A program made the translations under genes and the position numbers. Positions 10,751 to 64,000 of a stretch of 64,000 nt of DNA are shown here, one piece after another (position 1 is the stretch's first letter; the number at the start of each line of letters is the position of its first letter). The notes beneath the pieces are model-generated. The model had not been told where the DNA came from, made no database searches, and saw nothing but the letters and a program-made list of their open reading frames with translations. Origin of the DNA: Eledone cirrhosa (Eukaryota); NCBI GenBank assembly GCA_964016885.1, contig OZ024747.1:45880001-45944000 (forward strand), written 5' to 3'.

Positions 10751-12326
10751 GTTATATATATGTATACGTGTTATTACTATATAAGGAAATAGTGTTTGAA
10801 AACTGCAATGACTGCCCTTTTGGTTATTTAGAAAGTTTCTGTATTAATGTACCAATTAATTTAACCAGTTTCAACTGTGTTTACAGCTTTTCAAAAAGAA
10901 AAAGATTTTCGTTACAGTCTTTCGAAAAAACTTTTTTCCGTTTATGTTTACCTCACGTGGTTGGTCATTTGTATTATTACTGGGTACAAGGGACACAACT
11001 CGATGAGAATATGGTTCATTACCAGTTGCGTCAGTCAGGCTAGATTGTGTTATTTGTAAACCCCTGACGTTTTCATTGGACATGGCAGTAATTGAAATGT
11101 GTATGCAACTGAAGAGCGTATTAAGCCTGGTTGTAAATCTTGTAAATAAGGAATAATCTTTGTACACAAGGCAATATGGCAACGTTAGTATTTTCTCTCT
11201 AGATAAATTATAATTACATATCAGCTAATTACTTGAAACCTCCTTGTTTACAACTGGTATACTCGACATCTACAATTTCTACCTCATTTTTCATCAGTAC
11301 ATTTTTGTTTCCTTTAATCGTTTTCTCATATATTTTTATCTCCACTCCATCTCAATCCTCTTTTATCATGTAAATTGGGTGGCTCATTAACACTCATAAC
11401 ATACAGGCAGAGCATTTGAAAGCGTATAAAAATACAGGTAAGATTCAACAAAACTTTGTAATATTGTGTTAAAGCTTATATCCATCTCTTTTACCCATCT
11501 CATAATTCCCACCGACATGTGTTTCAATTAACTAGATTACCTTCCACCCTCATTTATTAGTCTTCTTATATTACTCGAGTTTTGCTTTGCATTTTAAAAC
11601 TGATACATGGTCTGTATAGATCTATCGATGATATATTCATACGGGCATACAGGTGAATGTGTGCATGTTTGAATATATCTATTCCTTTTTGGGAACTTTC
11701 AATGTCACTTAAACTCCCTGTAAAGAGAATACGCTTGGTGATCCCTCCTGTGTTATTACATAAGAAGACACCAATCGAAGTATGGAATGTATTTACACAT
11801 CAATAAAGTGATATTTAGTGAGACTAACGGCATCCATTGTCCTTCTGTCACCATATAACTGTTATCCACGCTTGTTATTCTTATATTTCCAAAAGCATTC
11901 TGAAGAAACGTATTAATGATTAAGAGCTCAGCAAAATAAATTAGTAATACATTGTTATTTTTATTGGGTATCTTCCTGCAATCTATTAACACCCTTCGAC
12001 GTATAATTATATATATATAATTATATATATAATAACAAATAACGAAACGAAATTAAATTTCGTTTCGTTTGTAACTCACTTTTGTATGACTGACGCTCAA
12101 ACAATTAAGTCAAAGATGTACATCCATATATGTATACTGAAATACTAGTATGTATATGAATACACACACGTATACATATGTAGATGTACCAAGTTTTTTT
12201 TCACTGATCACTTTACTGTGAGTGGCCAGCTATTCTGTATGTAAACACACAGACAAACCGGTTTTTAGAGTCATACTGGTTTTTGAGGAAACACCTTTCC
12301 TCTATTCTCCAGAAAGCCAGACAAGG

Positions 12327-12371
12327 AATATTGAACTAGTTTCGTTGTTGTTACAACTCATCAGCAATATT
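12327..12371 (-). ncRNA. type I hammerhead ribozyme; identical copies at 12796-12840 and 13265-13309
   Basis: AATATTG-CTGATGA-GTTGT-aaca-ACAAC-GAAACTAGTT-CAATATT. Confidence 0.85.
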
Positions 12372-13889
12372 TACCTATCTTCCGGCCTCTCTAGAGAATC
12401 GTAAAAGCACATATCGCTATATGCTTTTTCTATGAAAATTAGTAGTGGGCAGACCAACTTGCATAGAGTGTGAGTAAGTACCGGTTCAACGGAGACGATA
12501 AAAACAAATAACGAAACGAAATTAAATTTCGTTTCGTTTGTAACTCACTTTTGTATGACTGACGCTCAAACAATTAAGTCAAAGATGTACATCCATATAT
12601 GTATACTGAAATACTAGTATGTATATGAATACACACACGTATACATATGTAGATGTACCAAGTTTTTTTTCACTGATCACTTTACTGTGAGTGGCCAGCT
12701 ATTCTGTATGTAAACACACAGACAAACCGGTTTTTAGAGTCATACTGGTTTTTGAGGAAACACCTTTCCTCTATTCTCCAGAAAGCCAGACAAGGAATAT
12801 TGAACTAGTTTCGTTGTTGTTACAACTCATCAGCAATATTTACCTATCTTCCGGCCTCTCTAGAGAATCGTAAAAGCACATATCGCTATATGCTTTTTCT
12901 ATGAAAATTAGTAGTGGGCAGACCAACTTGCATAGAGTGTGAGTAAGTACCGGTTCAACGGAGACGATAAAAACAAATAACGAAACGAAATTAAATTTCG
13001 TTTCGTTTGTAACTCACTTTTGTATGACTGACGCTCAAACAATTAAGTCAAAGATGTACATCCATATATGTATACTGAAATACTAGTATGTATATGAATA
13101 CACACACGTATACATATGTAGATGTACCAAGTTTTTTTTCACTGATCACTTTACTGTGAGTGGCCAGCTATTCTGTATGTAAACACACAGACAAACCGGT
13201 TTTTAGAGTCATACTGGTTTTTGAGGAAACACCTTTCCTCTATTCTCCAGAAAGCCAGACAAGGAATATTGAACTAGTTTCGTTGTTGTTACAACTCATC
13301 AGCAATATTTACCTATCTTCCGGCCTCTCTAGAGAATCGTAAAAGCACATATCGCTATATGCTTTTTCTATGAAAATTAGTAGTGGGCAGACCAACTTGC
13401 ATAGAGTGTGAGTAAGTACCGGTTCAACGGATGAGTTGTAACAACAACGAAACTAGTTCAATATTCCTTGTCTGGCTTTCTGGAGAATAGAGGAAAGGTG
13501 TTTCCTCAAAAACCAGTATGACTCTAAAAACCGGTTTGTCTGTGTGTTTACATACAGAATAGCTGGCCACTCACAGTAAAGTGATCAGTGAAAAAAAACT
13601 TGGTACATCTACATATGTATACGTGTGTGTATTCATATACATACTAGTATTTCAGTATACATATATGGATGTACATCTTTGACTTAATTGTTTGAGCGTC
13701 AGTCATACAAAAGTGAGTTACAAACGAAACGAAATTTAATTTCGTTTCGTTATTTGTTTTTATCGTCTCCGTTGAACCGGTACTTACTCACACTCTATGC
13801 AAGTTGGTCTGCCCACTACTAATTTTCATAGAAAAAGCATATAGCGATATGTGCTTTTACGATTCTCTAGAGAGGCCGGAAGATAGGTA

Positions 13890-13934
13890 AATATTGCTGA
13901 TGAGTTGTAACAACAACGAAACTAGTTCAATATT
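13890..13934 (+). ncRNA. type I hammerhead ribozyme; identical copies at 14359-14403 and 14828-14872, truncated copy at 13430-13465
   Basis: 7-bp stem I, canonical core, 5-bp stem II, palindromic stem III ACTAGT, GUU triplet. Confidence 0.85.
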
Positions 13935-15205
13935 CCTTGTCTGGCTTTCTGGAGAATAGAGGAAAGGTGTTTCCTCAAAAACCAGTATGACTCTAAAAAC
14001 CGGTTTGTCTGTGTGTTTACATACAGAATAGCTGGCCACTCACAGTAAAGTGATCAGTGAAAAAAAACTTGGTACATCTACATATGTATACGTGTGTGTA
14101 TTCATATACATACTAGTATTTCAGTATACATATATGGATGTACATCTTTGACTTAATTGTTTGAGCGTCAGTCATACAAAAGTGAGTTACAAACGAAACG
14201 AAATTTAATTTCGTTTCGTTATTTGTTTTTATCGTCTCCGTTGAACCGGTACTTACTCACACTCTATGCAAATTGGTCTGCCCACTACTAATTTTCATAG
14301 AAAAAGCATATAGCGATATGTGCTTTTACGATTCTCTAGAGAGGCCGGAAGATAGGTAAATATTGCTGATGAGTTGTAACAACAACGAAACTAGTTCAAT
14401 ATTCCTTGTCTGGCTTTCTGGAGAATAGAGGAAAGGTGTTTCCTCAAAAACCAGTATGACTCTAAAAACCGGTTTGTCTGTGTGTTTACATACAGAATAG
14501 CTGGCCACTCACAGTAAAGTGATCAGTGAAAAAAAACTTGGTACATCTACATATGTATACGTGTGTGTATTCATATACATACTAGTATTTCAGTATACAT
14601 ATATGGATGTACATCTTTGACTTAATTGTTTGAGCGTCAGTCATACAAAAGTGAGTTACAAACGAAACGAAATTTAATTTCGTTTCGTTATTTGTTTTTA
14701 TCGTCTCCGTTGAACCGGTACTTACTCACACTCTATGCAAGTTGGTCTGCCCACTACTAATTTTCATAGAAAAAGCATATAGCGATATGTGCTTTTAAGA
14801 TTCTCTAGAGAGGCCGGAAGATAGGTAAATATTGCTGATGAGTTGTAACAACAACGAAACTAGTTCAATATTCCTTGTCTGGCTTTCTGGAGAATAGAGG
14901 AAAGGTGTTTCCTCAAAAACCAGTATGACTCTAAAAACCGGTTTGTCTGTGTGTTTACATACAGAATAGCTGGCCACTCACAGTAAAGTGATCAGTGAAA
15001 AAAAAACTTGGTACATCTACATATGTATACGTGTGTGTATTCATATACATACTAGTATTTCAGTATACATATATGGATGTACATCTTTGACTTAATTATA
15101 TATACAATTATATATATATATAATTACAGTCCAGGAAACAAGAAACAAACAAACAAGAAAATGTAATAACACGATATATATATATATATATATATATGAT
15201 AGATG

Positions 15206-28497: not shown

Positions 28498-29010
28498 CGT
28501 ATCTCCAAAGAAATACGGTTTTAGGAAGCCGTAGCTATACAAACACCGGGAGGCTAACGCCCTCTGGTGATGTCCAGCAGAAGGGGGACAACCGTCTATG
28601 CATTTCAGGCTTAACTGACCTTTGACAGGACGGTCCCTCCCACCGCTTGCGACTGCTGGACTAGAAGACAGCCGAGAATATATACTTTGCTCGTCTGTGT
28701 AAATGAGGTGATTAATCTCATTTGCATATGAAGCTGCATAAGTTGGCTCAACTTATAATTTAAAAAAAAGAGCGAAATCCTATTTCTTATTTTATTATAA
28801 GTATATATTCTCGGTTGTCTTCTCGTCCAGCAGTCGCAATCGGTGGGAGGGACCGTCCTGACGAAGGCCAGTTAAGCCTGAAACGCATAGACGGTTGTCC
28901 CCCTTGCTTCTGCTTGGCATCACCAGAGGGCGTTAGCCCCCCGGTGTTTGCATAGCTACGGCTTCCTAAAACCGTATTTCTTTGGACAAATATTTATACA
29001 TACGAAATAT
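28495..29010. mobile_element. fold-back HHR element with ~185-bp arms and ~110-bp spacer
   Basis: 28504-28688 is inverted at 28799-28986. Adjacent to (TA)n. Confidence 0.8.
28852..28895 (+). ncRNA. minimal type I hammerhead ribozyme
   Basis: ACCGTC-CTGACGA-AGGC-cagttaa-GCCT-GAAACGCATA-GACGGT. The mirror arm has the palindromic form GAAATGCATA. Confidence 0.78.
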
Positions 29011-33575: not shown

Positions 33576-35400
33576 TTTTAGCAGCATATTAGCTTTGATC
33601 TAACAGATCTATATCAAAGATATTCCAGCTGTAACCTTACTAATGTTCTAATGCATAGTTTATCTACAATTGCCTTTCGTTATGTGTGTGTTTTAAAAGA
33701 GCAGGGTGTTATTTGAGAGAGATTTCCATCAGATTAAGTGACCAGATAACGGCTCCTTCATTTCTTGATTTTCTTGTTAATCTTTACCTCCATAACCTCT
33801 CTCATGGAACAGATCTGTGACAAATGTCCCACTTATAACCATCACATCTTTGGCTTTTCGGTTATAGTGTGCCTAGGAATGGATTATTTGATAAAGATAG
33901 AATGACCATTGAAGATATTGCATTGCAGATAACTATTGTTAATAGTTATGAATGTAATGGTAGTTGTAGTGTTGAAAGTATAAATAGTGACGATGCTAGT
34001 AGTGGTGTTAAATGCAATAACGATGTAGATGGTATTAGTAACAATGATGAATAAGTAAATGATTGTCAAAGTCGGTAGAGCGGCATTTGTTCCAAGTCTT
34101 TCCTTATATTCTAATTCCAAATCCCGCCAAGGTCATATTCCTCATTCATCCTTCCAGGTGTTGATAAAATAAAGTACCACTCAAGCACTGGGGACAATTT
34201 AATCGACTTCCTCTTCCTCTAGAATTGCTGGTCTTGTGTCTAAATTAGAAATAATTATTAGTTTTTGCATATGAAAATTGGTAGAGCCTTTCAGAAGATT
34301 CTTCATTATATTTGCTCCGTTTCTTTATGGTCTGAGTTAAAGTGCTATAGAATCTAAGGTTGCATGTTTCTTCTTCTTTGTTCAATAAAATACTTGTTAA
34401 ATAATTGGCTCGATTTATCTTCTAATCCCTCAAAATAATTGTTTAACCTTGTATCTATATTAGAAAGAATTAGTAGTTATGATACTGAAAGTGTAAATGG
34501 TTATGCTGGGAGGTGTTTATGTTTGCTGTGGTGAAAGTGAATTATTGTGACACCAGTCTCAAAACTACCTACCAAAATAATCGTAAACATATTTCTTGAT
34601 TTCTAATTCAGGCTAGCAAATTTATGGGAAAAGCAACGCTGATTAAACCAGCGCCAGTACTTGATTTGTTGGTTATTTTATCGACGCCTAGACCAGGTCC
34701 AGCTGGAACTATTCTCCTCTTCCTCTGATATTGGTCATTTTCTTAAAAGAGAGTGTATTGATTGGCAGAATGAAGAGGGCATCAGAAAAGACACCATGTA
34801 GTAATTACACACAATATTTTAAGTTTGGATTTTAACTCTCACCGAACTCAACTTAACATATCAATCTTCCATTTCAATCTTCCGGCATCAATACCGTAAG
34901 TACCAGTTAAATATTCGGACGATTTAATCGATTGTGCCTTTGAAAGACATTAATATTAAAGAAAACAGAATTCTAATGTGAATTAGAACTAGCATCTTGT
35001 CGATGCTGACAATATACTCCACATTATGTTAAATTTTAAACAACTCACAATAGAACATTAAAATGATACACGGTTTACTGATACAAAATGGATCATGTTT
35101 ATCTTTGTGATATGTGTAATGTGTACACCCACCTCCTCACATATATAAAATATGGTGTATAAAAATGTTAATTTAGTGAACCTTTTAACAATCAAGATTA
35201 TTTTCACTAATAAGCAAACACGAGCAACATAATTTTTACCAATATCTTCCGCAGATTAAACTTGTCTGGCCTTTCTAAGCTGGATTAATGTCTCAACTTG
35301 TTATCAAGCAGATTTTAATATGTTATTGGAGGTGGGAGTAATATAAGCAAAATTATTATTGAATAATCCTGTTTAGTAGTTATTATTATCTTTAAAGCAT

Positions 35401-38400
35401 TCATAATTTGGTTTCCCCAAGAACGTCGTCGCTCTTTCTCTCCATTAACCCCCTATAGAACGCCGAGGTGGATGTTCCACCGATGCTAGTTCCCAGCTGG
35501 TAGAGGGCGGTGAGCGCTTGGAGACATTCCAGATTCCAAGCGCTATCCCTCGGTCTTTTCCTGATCCAGGACTGCTGCTCCGTCAAGGAGACGAGCTGAG
35601 GAAAAGCGCGTCTGGCAAACGGCGACCACACCTGTTCACCGTCATGGAAGCACCAGAGATGTCGCATCCTCAGCGCATGTATGCGCATCATCAGCGACGG
35701 CATGCCTAGTCCTCCACGCAACGGGTGTTGACATCTAATGGATCGTCTGACCATAGGAGCACGTCCCTTTCACAAAAAGCGGAAGAGAAGGCGCTCCATT
35801 TTGGTCAGAGTTGGGCGGGGTCAAGGTACGACGGTCAGGCGGTAGCAGATGACGGACGCTATGTACGCATTCGCCACCTGCGCCCGACCTTTTAGAGACA
35901 GCCTCCTCTCGGCCCATTTCTGAGTGAGAGAGGCCACCCTGCTCGTCACCTCGCTCCAGTTTTTCTCAATCTGGAGGTCCGGTCCGAAACAGACCCCGAG
36001 CAATTTAACCGGTCCACAATTTAAGCACCCCACGACGCTGTCGGACGGCATGGACTTGTCTCTCCAGGTGCCTTTTCCTGGTATAGTTTTGCTCCTGTCA
36101 CCGCTTCGTGTTTATTGAGAACGGGGCCGAACATCTGGACGTGTTTGGTGCTCGACACCACCACAGTGACGTCGTCAGGGTAAGCTGACACGGATCTCCC
36201 GCATCCCAGTTTGCGTGGGAACACCCTCATCGTTTCCAATTTGTGCAGTAACGGCGCGAGGGCCAGTACGTACAAGAGGAACGAGAGGGGGCAACTCTGG
36301 CGGACCGAGCACATGATGCTGAAAGGCTGCGACAGGTGACCATTGACCCTCACAATCTAGCAGATGTCACTGTGCATCGCAGCGATCCAGCCCCTAAAAA
36401 CGGCCGCTTCAAGGACGCAGCCAGGTACCGATGGTCGACAATATCAAATGCTTTAGATTGATCCAAGTTGATCAGGGCCCCACCCGTTCCAGGTTCCTTA
36501 ACCACCCTCTCTATGATGTATCGCATGAGATGGAGGGTGTCGTGGATGGATCTGTCCGGAATCGCGCATGCCTGCGCCTCTCCCACCAGATCACTGACGA
36601 CAAGCGCCAATCTCTTTGCTAACACCTTGGTCAAAATCTTAAACTCTGCGTTTAGCAGAGTTATGGGCCTGAAGTTGTCTATAACGTCCCCATTGTCTAT
36701 AACGCCCCCCTTTTCTCTCAGCATCGCCACCACTCCCCGGCTCACAAAAGTGGGAATGCTCCTGTTCTGCTGCAAGTTGCAGTAGACATCTGCCAAGAGG
36801 TCGCCGAACAAGTCTGGCATATACGCATAAAGTTCGTAGGGCTACCATCCAAACCTGGCGATTTACCCATCGTGCAGTTAGACATCGCTTCCCGTATTTC
36901 ACCTGCTGTTATCGGCTTTTCGCAGCACTGCGCTGCAGTCGTCGAGAGCCGCGGCACACCGTCGAGGTATGCACTGAAGTCCATACTCCGATCCGGCCCG
37001 CCGCCGCTCCCGAACAATTGACCAAAGTGTTGTTGAAAAGCCGCACACATCAGCTCGGGTTCGAGCAACCTGCTCCCGTTTTGACCAGGCAAAGACGGAA
37101 TTGTGGACTTGTTGCCATGTCGCGCCTCCACCAACCGGGCCCATTGAACGGCTTTCGTCCCCTCGTGTCTTAGAGCACACGCTCTAGCTCTGACAACGCA
37201 GCCTTCGTGCTTTGCGTTGAAGAATTGGTCGAGTGCCAATCTCACCGCAAGCACGTCGGTTGCGATGCCTGTCCTAAACGCTTCTTCTAGCTTTCTAACT
37301 CTCCATCTACTCTACTTTCCTCTATCACTCCTTTGCTAAACCTTATCGATTCTACTCTAATAGCCCTTTTCAGGGTAAACCACCACCTATTGTTGACTAT
37401 CGCATCCGTCAACGCACGCTTAACTAATTCGCTAATCCGGTCTCTGTAAGCTATGCGCACCGGAAAAGGCGCATTCAGCTTCCAGTATCCGGGCCCTTGC
37501 CTATGGAGTCTATCTAAGTCAAATTCACAGATCACAAATTTGTGGTCCGTGTAGTCGACACTAGCCATATCTGTTTCCCTACAGAATACCCTATCTAAAT
37601 ATGATCTGGATGACCCGATGCGGTTTGCCCATGTCCACATTGGCACATTCGGATAATCCAGTCTATATCTGTCAGACGTCTAAGCAGGTTGTTGAGGCTT
37701 TTACACCCTCCTGCCCTGTGTACTAGCCCCACATAATCCCAGTATGCATCTAAGATACCGTTCCAGTCGCCCACTAACACTAAAGAGCGGGACGTTCCAA
37801 GAAAGTTCTCTAGACGTCTGAAGAAATCTGGCCATCCTGCCCCTCTTGGGGCGTAGACGGCTACTTGTCTGAAAGCATTGCCTTCGCTGCCGGTCACGTC
37901 CAGCACCACCGACTTTCCTTCTGGGTCCAGGAAGATGTCCCATATGGCGAGATCCAAGCCTCTCCGAAAAAGCACGGCAACTCCTCCCCCTGATCCTGGA
38001 CGGCTGGGAGATGCGTATACACCGTAGCTGCCGAAGATCAGTGCGAAGGCTTGTGCTTCGGAGATTCTGGTCTCGCTGATGGCCACCACATCTATGTTTA
38101 GTGACCTGAGGTCGTTGAGCAGGTGACCCTGCTTCCAAGATGACCCCAGGCCACGTACATTTATACTGCCTATTCTAAGTACGGCTATGTTGGATGGAAA
38201 CCGGGGTAAGTGAGAAAGGATCACTTACCTTGATCGTGTGGTGAAGGGACAGTAGAACCGTCCCTTTGGCTGGTCATGGGTGTTTCCAAGATGATGTCCG
38301 TGTATATCCTCTTGGTAACCGACCCTCTGAAGTCTCCAACTGCGTTGGGGAATTTTTCTTTTAAAAGTTTGTAATGTTCTATTTTGATTTCAATGATGTC

Positions 38401-40444: not shown

Positions 40445-42872
40445 TGAAACAAACATATATGGGAAAATATAACAGTTGAACAGTTGCGTTTGGCTCTTAG
40501 AAAAACCAGCAAATGGAAATCCCCAGGAAAAGACAAAATACAAAACTTTTGGATAAATGCCTTCACAGAGTCTCATGAGCTGTTAGCCCAACTTTACAAT
40601 GAAATAGTTAAGGAGCCAGAAAAGATACCATCATGGCTAGTTAACGGCATTGCATTCCTGCTTCCGAAGAATGATGAGACAAACAATCCCCAAAATTACA
40701 GACCGATAACTTGCTTGACCACAATGTATACAATTTTAACATCAGTCCTAACTGAATATACATATGACCACATGATAACAAATGACCTATTTCCCAATGA
40801 GCAGAAAGGGTGTAAACGAGGCTCATATGGCTGTAAGGATCAGCTTTTGGTTAACAAAATGATACTGGATGATTGTCATAATAGACACAAAATCTATCAA
40901 TTGCTTGGATAGATTATAAAAAAGCATTCGATAGTTTGCCACACAGTTGGATTGAAAAATGTTTAGAGATTTTCAAAATATCTCCTGTTGTCAGCAGGTT
41001 CCTGTCATTCAGTATGAAGACATGGAAAACGACACTCCTTTTGAATAGTGAAAAACAACTCACTGGAAGCTGGAGAAGTTAATATTAAATGTAGAATTTT
41101 TCAGGGTGACTCATTATCACCGCTTTTATTCTGCATCGCAGTTATACCATTAAGTAAAATGCTCAATGAAACAAAACATGGATATAAAGTCTATGACAAA
41201 ACCATTAAACACTAGTTCTACATGGATGATCTGAAACTATTTGCAAAAAATGATGAACAATTTCAAAGGCTATTATCCACTGTGGAGAAGTTCAGTGATG
41301 ACATTAAAATGGAGTTTGGACTAGATAAATGCGCCAAAGCAACGTTCACCAGAGGAAAGCTGCTGAAAAGTTTAGACATTAATCTTGATCGGGGGAATGT
41401 GATAAGAGAACTTGATCAAGAGGAAACTTGCAAATATCTAGGTGTTTGTGAAGGAGACGGAATCAAGCACTCGACAATGAGGGAAAGGATAAGGAAGGAA
41501 TGTTACCGCAGAGTAAGAGCAATCTTAAGAACGGAATTGAATCAAGGAATAGGATCGATGCCATAAACACGCTTGCCATACCAGTAGTAACCTACAGTTA
41601 CAATGTCATCAACTGGTCAAGCACAGAGATCCGTAGGCTCGATACAAAAATTTGAAAATTCTTAACCATGCATAGAATGCATCACCCTAAGGCAGATACA
41701 GATAGAATATATCTCCCTAGGAAAGAAGGAGGACGTGAGTTAATCCAGTTAGATATTGCGTTTAAAACTGCAACAATTGGATATCTAAGGGAATCACATG
41801 ATTGGATGATCGAACTCGTTTTGAAACACGAAAGCATCAAAAGATCATTCTCCATTACAAAAGATGCACAAAGATACAGTAATGGACTACAAATTTCAGA
41901 AGTCCCATTTACTGCTGAAATGGAAAACACAGAAAAAACAGAGCAAGTAAAAGTAACTGCAAAGAAAGAACTGCTACAGAAACTGGCTAAGAAATAGCAA
42001 GAAAAGCCTCTGTATGGAAAATACCCAGAAAGAGCTAACAATCCTGATGTTGACAAAACTTTAACCCATCAGTGGTTGGCATCCTCTGGACTGAAATCGG
42101 AGACTGAAGGTCTGATTATATCAGCACAAGATCAGTGTCTGCCAACAAAAAATTACCAAGCCAACATAATAAAAAATGGATGCAACCCATTATGCCGTGT
42201 ATGCAAAAAACAACCATAGACCATTGATCATATAATTTCAATGTGCAGTCCTATAGCTCCAACCGAATACCTAAACAGGCATGACTGAGCTGCACAATAC
42301 ATACAATGGATAATGTGTAAGCATTTTGACCTGCCCCATCAAAAGAATTGGTGGGAGCATCAACCACCTCCCATACTTGAAAAAGATCACATCTCAATCT
42401 TGTGGAACTTTAGCATCCAAACAGACCGAAAAATAGATGCAAATAGGCCTGATATAATATTGAAGGACTTTAAAAAGAGGGTATGCCTGCTAATTAATAT
42501 GTCCGTTCCAATATAAAAACATTTGAAAAGTTGAGCAAGTATAAGGACCTGGAGATAGAAATTGGAAAAATGTGGAAATTGAGAACTAAAACAATACCAG
42601 TGGTTGTGGGCGCTCTAGGAATGATACCTAAGGGGTCTAATGATCGCAAATCCCAGAAAACACGCGTATAGGAGAAATAGTACTAATGGGAACTGCCCAT
42701 ATACTAAGGAAGATTCTGTCAATATAAGTACATCACAAGTCTAAACACCTAAATATGCATGTGTGTGTGTATGTATGTTCTTTCTTGAACATGGCAGACC
42801 TTGTTGTCTTTTGAGGTCACTGGTTGTGACTTGGTGATAACTCGTATGAACATAAAGCAAGATAAATGCAAC

Positions 42873-49518: not shown

Positions 49519-52249
<2,731 letters not shown>

Positions 52250-61578: not shown

Positions 61579-62704
61579 GGTGGCTGCCAACTCGTTTTCG
61601 AGTACGGCCACTACTTTATATCCATGTAGGAGAACCCCTACCGATGCGCTGAACGAGTGTGACTTTTAGTCCAGCCAGCGACTTGAAAACACTAGTACAA
61701 ACACTACACTTGTGACAATTATTGACACATAGTGCTGGGCCCATGGTACCATGTGACGACAAGTGCAGAGAGATCTCCAGATATAAAGCAATGCCTGTGC
61801 CGTGAAGCTTTTATAGTGAGCAAAGGCACTGCACAAAGCCAGTCCCACTCTCTTAACCAAGATGATATTTACCAAAAAGAAGAACAAGTCAACATCATTG
61901 GATACCATCAGGGTTGCAGGTGTTATATCAGAGTTTTCCTTCTCCTAGAATTCTGCCTTGACAAAAGCTAAGGGTTCATCTCTCCCGTTATATAATACAT
62001 ACATACATACATACATACATACATACATACATACATACATACATACATACATACATACATGTGCGTGTGTATACATAAGTCGGTATTAGAAATCCAATAC
62101 GAAAGAAAAATACAATAACAGTATTAGTTTAAAGGATGATAGAACAGGGAAAATGTCTTAACATTTCGGACGATTGTCCTTTATTGGAAAAGAGCAAAAT
62201 AGAGAAAAGTGGATATACGAGACAGAGAAAAAAAAGGGAAATTGATGAGAATTTTAAAAGATAAACGGAGAAAAGGGAATAGAGGGGACACCTATGTTGC
62301 TGATAATCAACCGTCTTTAGAAAAGGAAGTCAGAAAAGGTATTTAAAGGAAGACTGAAACGTTAAATAGTTGATAAAAAGAGAAATGTATTTAGTATTGT
62401 TGAAATAAATATACATGTGTGTAAGTGTGTGTGCGCTTATTTGTGAGAGTCGAAAAAACGTTTTCGTACGTTGGAGTGTAGCATTTTTCGAGCAATTATT
62501 GTGTGGTGTTATTTTTTTAATGTGTGTTTGTGTGTGTTTGTGTGTGACATAGTTCCTGTGAGTGAGGGTCAGAGTCCAACGAAGTATTACGGACTTGTTA
62601 TGGATGGTTGTGGCCGAAGCGACGCGGTTCGGATGACATAGAATTATGAAAATCAAATCATCTGGCGTGCGGCTACGAGTGGGACTGTAAAAGGGAGGAA
62701 TTAA

Positions 62705-63605
62705 TGAAGAGATGTAGATATATGGATGGACATACATATATGACGAGATGTAAATATATGGATGGACATACATACATGGATGGACATACATATAGGACGA
62801 GATATAGATATATGGATGGAGATACATATATGAAGAGATTTAGATATATGTAAGGACATACATATATGGATGGACATACATATATGCTAAGATATAGATA
62901 TATGGATGGACATACATATATGAAGAGATGTAGATATATGGATGGACATACATATATGACGAGATCTAGATATATGGAAGGACATACACAGATGATGAGA
63001 TGTAGATATATGAAGGGACATACATATATGAAGAGATATAGATATATGGATGGACATACATATATGAAGAGATATAGATATATGGATGGACATACATATA
63101 TGAAGAGATGTAGATATATGGATGGACATACATATATGACGAGATCTAGATATATGGAAGGACATACATAGATGATGAGAAGTAGATTTATGAAGGGACA
63201 TACATATATGAAGAGATATAGATATATGGATGGACATACATATATGAAGAGATATAGATATATGGATGGACATACATATATGACGTGATGTAGATATATC
63301 GATGGACATACATATATGACGATATATAGATATATGGAAGGACATACATATATGACGAGATGTAGATATATGGAAGGACATACATATATGAAGAGATGTA
63401 GATATATGAAGGGAGATACATATATGAAGAGATGTAGATATATGGAGGGACATACATATATGATGAGATATAGATATATGGAAGGACATACATATATTAA
63501 GAGATATAGATATATGGATGGACATACATATATGACGAGATATAGATATATGGATGGACATACATATATGAAGAGATATAGATATATGAAGGGACATACA
63601 TATAT
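62705..63605. repeat. 36-bp minisatellite, about 25 units
   Basis: Unit ATGAAGAGATATAGATATATGGATGGACATACATAT. Confidence 0.9.
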
Positions 63606-64000
63606 GTATGAAGTAAATTAGCAGGCATTTTAGTATACCTGTAGTTAATTGTTTTGTCTCTCCACGCTCTGAAGTTAATTCATTCTTTTATCTTTTTATG
63701 GCTGTTTATATAGTATCAGTTCATGGCGGTGAATTATCGGAATTTTAGACGTCGGTTTTTTGTTCCGGCATTTGTAGTTTTTTCCAAATTGAAGGATGAG
63801 TATTTAAACTTTATTTTATTCAGAGTTAAGGCTCTATTGATTTTTCTCTGGATTTCTGTGGATAAATCAATGTCTTGATTTTTTTTTAATTGAGTTTGTA
63901 TTATTTTCCCACATCTTACGTTAATTATTTTTCCATTTTGACGTTATAGTCACTTATATATTATGAAATACTGTTGGCTTCACGCTCGCAATAATTTCTA

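Follow-up and report, generated by a model that had tools for sequence, protein, structure and literature searches.

The 64,000-nucleotide stretch of DNA analysed here, hereafter the window, comes from Eledone cirrhosa (assembly GCA_964016885.1, contig OZ024747.1, positions 45,880,001 to 45,944,000 of the forward strand) and carries, between 12029 and 15097, an array of 469-bp non-coding units bearing type I hammerhead ribozymes (Table 1). Tandem Repeats Finder and alignment resolve the array into two arms that point apart and are joined 5'-to-5', with about 6.5 unit copies in all that are at least 99.5% identical. With this divergent arrangement, each outer end is a 3' end of the strand that carries the hammerhead in sense. 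Units are numbered throughout from the first base past the predicted cut (position 1, window 13459); the 5' ends of the left and right arms then fall at unit positions 310 and 441, respectively, and the left arm has a single mismatch, at 12033, near its outer end. The 74-nt 'tail' that distinguishes the long from the short outer end contains a 13-bp hairpin at unit positions 265–293 and is nearly invariant between subfamilies; we infer that it is the stretch lying between two reverse-transcription start sites. Both flanks are (TA)n, and the target-site duplication is uncertain because of this low-complexity sequence. The reference unit has 100% matches on many contigs of this genome, and with only four differences from it over ~3,070 bp of array the insertion is very recent. 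An earlier note on this DNA had rightly described some 6.5 near-identical, non-coding 469-bp units set in (TA)n and a recent insertion, but it had read them as one tandem array starting at 12034 rather than as two inverted arms starting at about 12029. It had also placed the outer ends in different phases of the unit, and these do differ, although not at random, since they are the fixed 3' ends of the family, 305 and 231.

Table 1. Features of the hammerhead-bearing array and the Penelope-like element of the window (positions are those of the window).
Feature	Position	Strand	Remarks
Left arm	12029..13431	-	2.99 units; outer 3' end: long, at unit position 305
Right arm	13430..15097	+	3.56 units; outer 3' end: short, at unit position 231
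Arm junction, 5'-to-5'	13430..13431	.	2-nt overlap, GA
Reference unit, one full monomer, cut to cut	13459..13927	+	position 1 = 13459
74-nt 'tail', unit positions 232-305	12029..12102	-	at left outer end; absent at right outer end
Candidate target-site duplication, left copy	12018..12029	+	12 nt; overlaps arm end
Candidate target-site duplication, right copy	15093..15104	+	12 nt; overlaps arm end by 5 nt
Hammerhead copy	12324..12376	-	predicted cut 12334/12333
Hammerhead copy	12793..12845	-	predicted cut 12803/12802
Hammerhead copy	13262..13314	-	predicted cut 13272/13271
Junction-truncated hammerhead	13430..13468	+	without 5' strand of stem I and first core bases
Type I hammerhead	13885..13937	+	predicted cut after GUU, 13927/13928
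Hammerhead copy	14354..14406	+	predicted cut 14396/14397
Hammerhead copy	14823..14875	+	predicted cut 14865/14866
Penelope-like element (PLE)	49621-52249		reverse transcriptase (RT)/GIY-YIG frame 50300-51526 (-); GIY-YIG match just below cut-off

The ribozyme consists of a 7-bp stem I, extended via a UA bulge (AGG/CCU), the core segments CUGAUGA and GAAA, a stem II of 5 bp and, inside the palindrome ACUAGU, a stem III of 2 bp; this parse and the predicted cut after GUU agree with the earlier note. Its statement that every unit holds a perfect type I hammerhead applies to six complete copies, three consecutive ones per arm, while a seventh is 5'-truncated by the junction. The covariance-model comparison that it had suggested returns Rfam Hammerhead_HH9 at an E-value of 4.8e-8, with a score of 37.7 bits that lies under the gathering score of 52; at the gathering threshold, Rfam matches zero families in the window. 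Matches by E-value to sraA and to miRNA families were rejected as hairpin matches below gathering. Because stem I extends through the UA bulge and can be aligned to HH9, the motif is a canonical and not, as had been proposed, a minimal type I hammerhead. PMC3138052 counts GUU among the cleavable triplets. A motif scan detects the core in the sense polarity only, and in 19 of 19 units spanning ~14% divergence it is unchanged, with one stem II pair exchanged from U-A to A-U in nine of them, probably by a single event. The unit itself has a GC content of 36%, a longest ATG frame of 23 amino acids when circularised and no frame of more than 60 codons. It is predicted to fold far more strongly than its shuffles (z = -9.96 for the copy at 13928-14396), with 67% of bases paired in the predicted circular fold and an 8-bp intermolecular stem III in the predicted dimer.

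The unit belongs to a real, young and abundant retrozyme family. An exact pattern finds 9,301 hammerhead cores across the 3.0-Gb genome at many loci, in line with the dispersed multimers that the earlier note had expected of a genome search. Junctions between position 305 and (TA)n number 1,995 by exact match, compared with zero for the reversed control, although the pattern itself selects for TA targets; the genome thus holds at least 1,995 insertion ends of the family. The short end gives 818 forward matches genome-wide with a pattern that misses one subfamily, and the cleavage site joined to (TA) gives no match in the genome, i.e., no 3' end at the cleavage site. A search with the unit returned 331 candidates, from which 34 loci were scored with 312 unit matches between them (set A, the window and 33 others, biased toward copies near-identical to the window unit). 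A genome search with the 466-nt variant gave no match, a result that does not indicate absence, as very common words are skipped in such a search. The first 30 position-305 junctions in contig order all belong to the family, with 86–100% identity to the window unit across the portion aligned; the subfamilies are 86–98% alike. Set B comprises 39 loci, 38 of them distinct, chosen by the long end (11 of the 30 extended, nine added). Each locus has its own flanks and junctions except for the pair L164 and L165, two insertions 18 kb apart with identical arms and junction, which are probably a segmental duplication or an assembly duplicate and were counted once. The unit-to-unit joint was also observed in contigs from four sequencing runs (X1, X3, X5 and X6), the X6 form carrying C at the cut (GUC). 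Run X1, which may be the window's own sample, contains loose (TA)n ends at position 231 (one contig) and 305 (12 contigs), while X3, X5 and X6, filed under three other organism codes, yield few, low-depth unit contigs, which may stem from relatives, diet or contamination. No RNA run was listed as containing the unit, which carries no information on expression.

Perhaps the most telling feature of the family is its insertion footprint. Two arms are present in 26 of the 34 loci of set A, and in sets A and B together all 53 adjacent arm pairs run minus-then-plus, i.e., 5'-to-5'. Both outer ends could be resolved in 49 of these 53 insertions, four having one end unclear, and 46 of the 49 combine a short end at unit position 226-235 with a long end at 302-305, both in (TA)n; 44 were scored by script (225-236 and 300-306), and L046 (305/235) and L050 (233/305) were added by stricter alignment. 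Insertions with two long or two short ends were never seen (0/49). Set B had been preselected by its long end, and its informative test is therefore the lack of long-plus-long pairs, whereas set A, unselected on ends, gives the long-plus-short combination in 24 of 25 cases. Four further set B loci, read by eye, have a very short second arm ending at 233-235. The arm junctions are mostly blunt or overlap by 1–5 nt, with some fillers and some long overlaps at an internal hairpin, and 65 of 88 arms are more than one unit long. Flanking words of 11–13 nt are shared at 10 of the 16 loci whose word is not pure TA. The aligned insertions are free of long terminal repeats (LTRs).

The same layout is displayed by protein-coding elements of this genome. 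The PLE in the window forms a 732-bp inverted repeat whose 3' ends both lie in (TA)n, has a ~41-nt tail at the left only, and belongs to an older family (91–94% protein identity among the best 102 of 26,363 candidates). A second, autonomous family (L039:6412-8045; L134-L151), encountered in a search that gave 42,858 candidate PLE-like matches, is very young, as its proteins are 99% identical, and has a 4,286-bp period, a 1,278-amino-acid open frame, full-length tandem copies, a hammerhead-like motif at period position 313 and a 60-nt tail. Pfam reports zero families in this frame or its C-terminal piece. We nevertheless call it a PLE because of its tblastn match to the RT/GIY-YIG frame of the window (E 2.8e-12, 23% over 436 amino acids), its Atlas neighbours, which carry RVT_1, HTH_animal and GIY-YIG at 0.96–0.98, and its layout; a CX4CXXC motif before the GIY-YIG region, as described in PMC8557442, makes it 'Neptune-like' by motif rather than by a tree. 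Among 15 two-arm insertions of this young family, picked for minus/plus match pairs, all 15 share the layout of the retrozyme, with ends at 508-511 and 571-575 in (TA)n. The insertions of the non-coding unit thus bear the footprint that PLE integration leaves. Two inverted arms and fixed ends that come in pairs point to a Penelope-like mobiliser, and we regard PLE-type mobilisation of the retrozyme as extremely likely. In seven of the PLE insertions (L138-L140, L142-L144 and L151) the two 5' ends are no more than 12 nt apart, as could result from both cDNAs running off the same RNA end or from one folding back. At L148:3658 and L149:5982, PLE arms have their 5' ends at period positions 352 and 346, beside the hammerhead cut predicted for this element after 347, a hint that PLE RNA may serve as a template once cleaved.

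What served as the template of the retrozyme insertions is best judged from the variants shared among their units. In set B, units diverge by 0.28% within arms, 0.30% between sister arms and 5.2% between insertions, and at 21 of 25 loci the sister arm is at least as close as the arm of any other locus (ties counted as not closer). In set A, variants other than homopolymer changes are mostly confined to one locus. Rare variants recur in every pass of both arms at L055 (8/8), L060 (4/4), L061 (11/11), L062 (7/7) and L063 (9/9), and in 8/8 passes of a single arm at L057, while all 14 full units of L157 are identical; even arms of less than one unit have the same haplotype on either side of the inversion (L100, L104). 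Variants found in all passes call for a bottleneck of a single unit with repeated copying thereafter, and a circular monomer provides both. One template haplotype per insertion, as read from these genomic copies, favours multimers made at birth. The 5' ends are spread evenly round the unit (n = 106, Kolmogorov–Smirnov p = 0.31), with two lying within 5 nt of the cleavage site where 2.0 are expected. With no pile-up of 5' ends at the cut, cleaved linear monomers are ruled out as the main template, and fold-back synthesis of the second arm is rejected for the retrozyme, since the 5' ends of its two arms show no relation to one another. Of 44 retrozyme insertions, none has its 5' ends spaced by 12 nt or less, compared with 7 of 15 PLE insertions (a hand-picked and hence biased set), a contrast that fits a template without a free 5' end.

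The family displays individual features of several known systems. Its tandem units are non-coding and self-paired, have a GC content below 50% and one type I hammerhead each, lack LTRs and share the genome with PLEs, all as in the animal non-LTR retrozymes, and by these sequence-level criteria the family belongs to that group. The unit, which the earlier note had thought unusually long, is unexceptional in size, lying just above the 150–450 bp given for retrozymes in PMC7229834 and within the 51–972 bp given in bioRxiv 10.64898/2026.07.22.740005, and its shared flanking words of 11–13 nt compare with target-site duplications of more than 4 bp described for retrozymes. Circular templates have been proposed for these elements and PLEs named as strong mobiliser candidates (PMC7229834, PMC4209133), although the repeats show no motif that identifies the mobiliser (PMC7761336); the bioRxiv study adds co-occurrence with PLEs and kinship to their pseudo-LTRs (pLTRs), and explains arrays by local, satellite-like amplification. 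RNA circles have been shown for coral, mussel and axolotl retrozymes, whereas the family described here is known from genomic DNA. A pLTR homologue was reported for 24 of 57 Xenopus families, compared with none found here in the two PLE families examined. Retrozymes are described as head-to-tail repeats with a hypothesised mobiliser, in contrast to the inverted arms, paired fixed 3' ends and one-sided tail found here. In the retrozyme literature searched, with supplements and subscription journals outside its scope, we found no description of inverted two-arm insertions with paired ends; the bioRxiv study uses neither 'tail' nor 'orientation', and 'invert' in the ten passages of PMC7229834 refers to invertebrates.

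On the side of the PLEs, in vitro work with a purified protein showed nicking and extension of both strands of an AT-rich target, with cDNA starting at two internal RNA sites that bound the tail; the protein has been modelled as a dimer (PMC11167929). Partial tandems that include an inverted, 5'-truncated copy, and a 30–40-bp tail that is often one-sided, are the form described for PLE insertions (PMC8557442). The retrozyme thus resembles endonuclease PLEs (Poseidon_Ac, PMC11167929; Neptune and Naiad, PMC8557442) in its inverted 5'-truncated arm, its one-sided tail, a pair of internal start sites lying downstream of the hammerhead and AT-rich or (TA)n targets. It also resembles the non-autonomous Chlamys elements (MRC1, PMC8557442), which depend on PLEs and form multicopy head-to-tail insertions, but these are found in green algae, resemble the 3' end of their partner and belong to a clade described without canonical hammerheads. 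In contrast to the endonuclease PLEs, the unit has no RT or GIY-YIG gene, measures 469 bp rather than about 3–4 kb, carries a canonical and not a minimal hammerhead and was copied for many rounds per arm. In the twin priming of L1 elements, two target strands prime cDNA and the resulting inversion is joined by microhomology, with the first primer on the poly(A) end and the second at variable internal sites, while the retrozyme has two internal starts at fixed positions and multimers in each arm. Viroid-like replicons, which replicate from RNA to RNA, often with ribozymes in both polarities, and have no genomic DNA copy, differ in turn from a family with thousands of genomic DNA copies and a hammerhead in one polarity by motif scan.

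The footprint could have arisen as follows. An array would be transcribed, its hammerheads would cut monomers of 465–470 nt and a host ligase would close these into circles. A PLE protein would bind the circle near the conserved region 224–305 and nick both strands of a (TA)n target ~11–13 bp apart. Each nicked strand would then prime internally on the RNA, at 231-235 for one strand and at 302-305 for its partner, after which the two cDNAs would circle the same kind of monomer for fewer than one to more than ten rounds. Having stopped at unrelated places, they would be joined by short overlaps or filler, leaving diverging arms and a one-sided 74-nt tail; a minority of arrays would lengthen after insertion. 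From this combination of sequence features we think it probable that the element is an animal non-LTR retrozyme mobilised in trans, with a PLE protein reverse-transcribing its circular monomer from two internal starts, one per strand. The chances appear evenly balanced that, beyond this, the insertions are a natural record of rolling-circle target-primed reverse transcription of a ribozyme-made circle, in which a dimer of the PLE enzyme uses two fixed starts 74 nt apart, one for each target strand and nearly always on the same RNA molecule. The earlier note's proposal of a retrozyme amplified by rolling reverse transcription is in keeping with the dispersed multimers, the one haplotype per insertion and the 5' ends that show no stop at the cut, although it had missed the inverted layout and the paired ends.

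A number of observations weigh against a circular template copied by a PLE protein. Eight of the 34 set A loci are single-armed, in 3 of the 49 resolved insertions the second end lies elsewhere (218 in L058 and L113, 125 in L103), and the best target-site duplications are pure TA, and thus uninformative, in 34 of 50 cases. The 74-nt tail differs in length from those of the two PLE families of this genome (60 and ~41 nt) and from the published 30–40 nt. Homology to the unit was found neither in the window PLE family nor in the 1,278-amino-acid family or other sampled loci, and the similarity of the unit to the pLTRs of two PLE families is not above that of shuffles, of which 147/200, 50/200 and 156/200 score as high; the circle may recruit the PLE enzyme by structure alone, without pLTR homology. 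As to the ribozyme, the cut triplet is GUU in the window's subfamily and GUC in the most divergent one, and GUU is expected to be cut at a lower rate. Covariation across the whole unit is weak, with two pairs changing on both sides (matched by 484 of 500 shuffles) and one of these adjoining an alignment gap. Among the unit variants, another locus is closer than the sister arm at 4 of 25 loci, and an insertion in L054 (insG24) occurs in only 6 of 8 passes. At L056 (1044-5172) two variants are mixed, with five passes of a 466-nt variant followed by window-type units; the switch lies near a 23-nt deletion and the window-type variant also forms the other arm, an order which suggests a template switch or recombination.

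Some further points of this kind are best weighed with the alternatives that they would favour. The main rival, unlikely in our view, is PLE-type twin priming on an uncleaved linear multimeric transcript, with no circle and the hammerhead a mere passenger. It holds this place because hammerhead cleavage is not needed for PLE insertion in vitro (PMC11167929) and eight of nine frog dimers remained uncleaved, one being cleaved (bioRxiv 10.64898/2026.07.22.740005). It would also accommodate a youngest subfamily that carries GUU and the variants found in alternate units of L037, L051 and L058, and copies of donor arrays that are already homogeneous would be homogeneous too. Against this, a new mutation hits one unit, and variants in all units of both arms (the five loci named above, together with L157) need a single-unit bottleneck and re-multimerisation; most variants besides homopolymer changes are private to one locus, and the invariance of the core in 19/19 units over ~14% divergence, with a compensated stem II pair, also speaks against it. 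Considerably less probable is that PLE insertions of about one unit grew later by unequal crossover or slippage, the satellite-like route of the bioRxiv study, while gene conversion evened out the arms. Such growth would suit L152, where one arm (G000:C1, about 5738086-5752750) has ~31 hammerhead cores and the 14 units sequenced include 11 distinct ones with recurring variant sets, so that L152 is possibly a satellite in the making, and duplicated pairs of units occur in other arrays (L037). Yet arms of 10–13.5 almost uniform units already occur in insertions at least 99.5% identical to the window unit, 65 of 88 arms are longer than a single unit, and unequal crossover needs a starting repeat; sub-unit arms, too, carry one haplotype on both sides of the inversion (L100, L104).

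Very little credence is due to the last alternative, in which an outside viroid-like replicon integrated once or the array is an artefact of assembly. The strong self-pairing of the unit (z = -9.96), near-identical DNA in runs under four organism codes and the difficulty of assembling (TA)n inverted repeats might be cited for it. However, thousands of dispersed copies in subfamilies 86–98% alike, a hammerhead core in one polarity only, flanks and junctions distinct at each locus (L164/L165 excepted) and a protein-coding PLE with the same layout all speak against it. The retrozyme is an old resident family, as its subfamilies indicate, which makes the outside viroid-like agent entertained in the earlier note unnecessary.

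Fragments of non-LTR retrotransposons occupy two other parts of the window. The one at 35400-38230 (-) has an RVT_1 match at 36350-36841 and, at 37595-38224, a frame resembling an endonuclease; the other, at 40448-40912 (+), is an RT-like frame with no Pfam match. A 36-bp minisatellite of 25 copies lies at 62704-63606 and a degenerate 33-bp repeat at 1565-1660. Other hammerhead-like cores, unrelated to the unit, occur at 28858, 7685 (-), 9394 (-), 31932 (-) and 32152, with similar ones at other loci, and probably belong to the pLTRs of other PLE families.

Elements of this kind are already known; their insertion footprint, within the limited literature searched, appears to be new. In the sources considered, the case for a mobiliser of retrozymes has so far relied only on hammerheads in common, co-occurrence and kinship of pLTRs, and the origin of retrozyme arrays, by rolling-circle copying or by later satellite-like growth, is unsettled. 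The Eledone family carries a mechanical signature of PLE integration at many insertions, and places a constraint on PLE biology itself in that its start sites work as a couple, each serving one end of the insertion. If the rolling-circle reading is true, the mobiliser of animal retrozymes would have been identified from genomic footprints, their arrays would be born as multimers and the one-sided PLE tail would be explained, and the 469-nt unit would provide a substrate for RNA-circle-to-genome integration.

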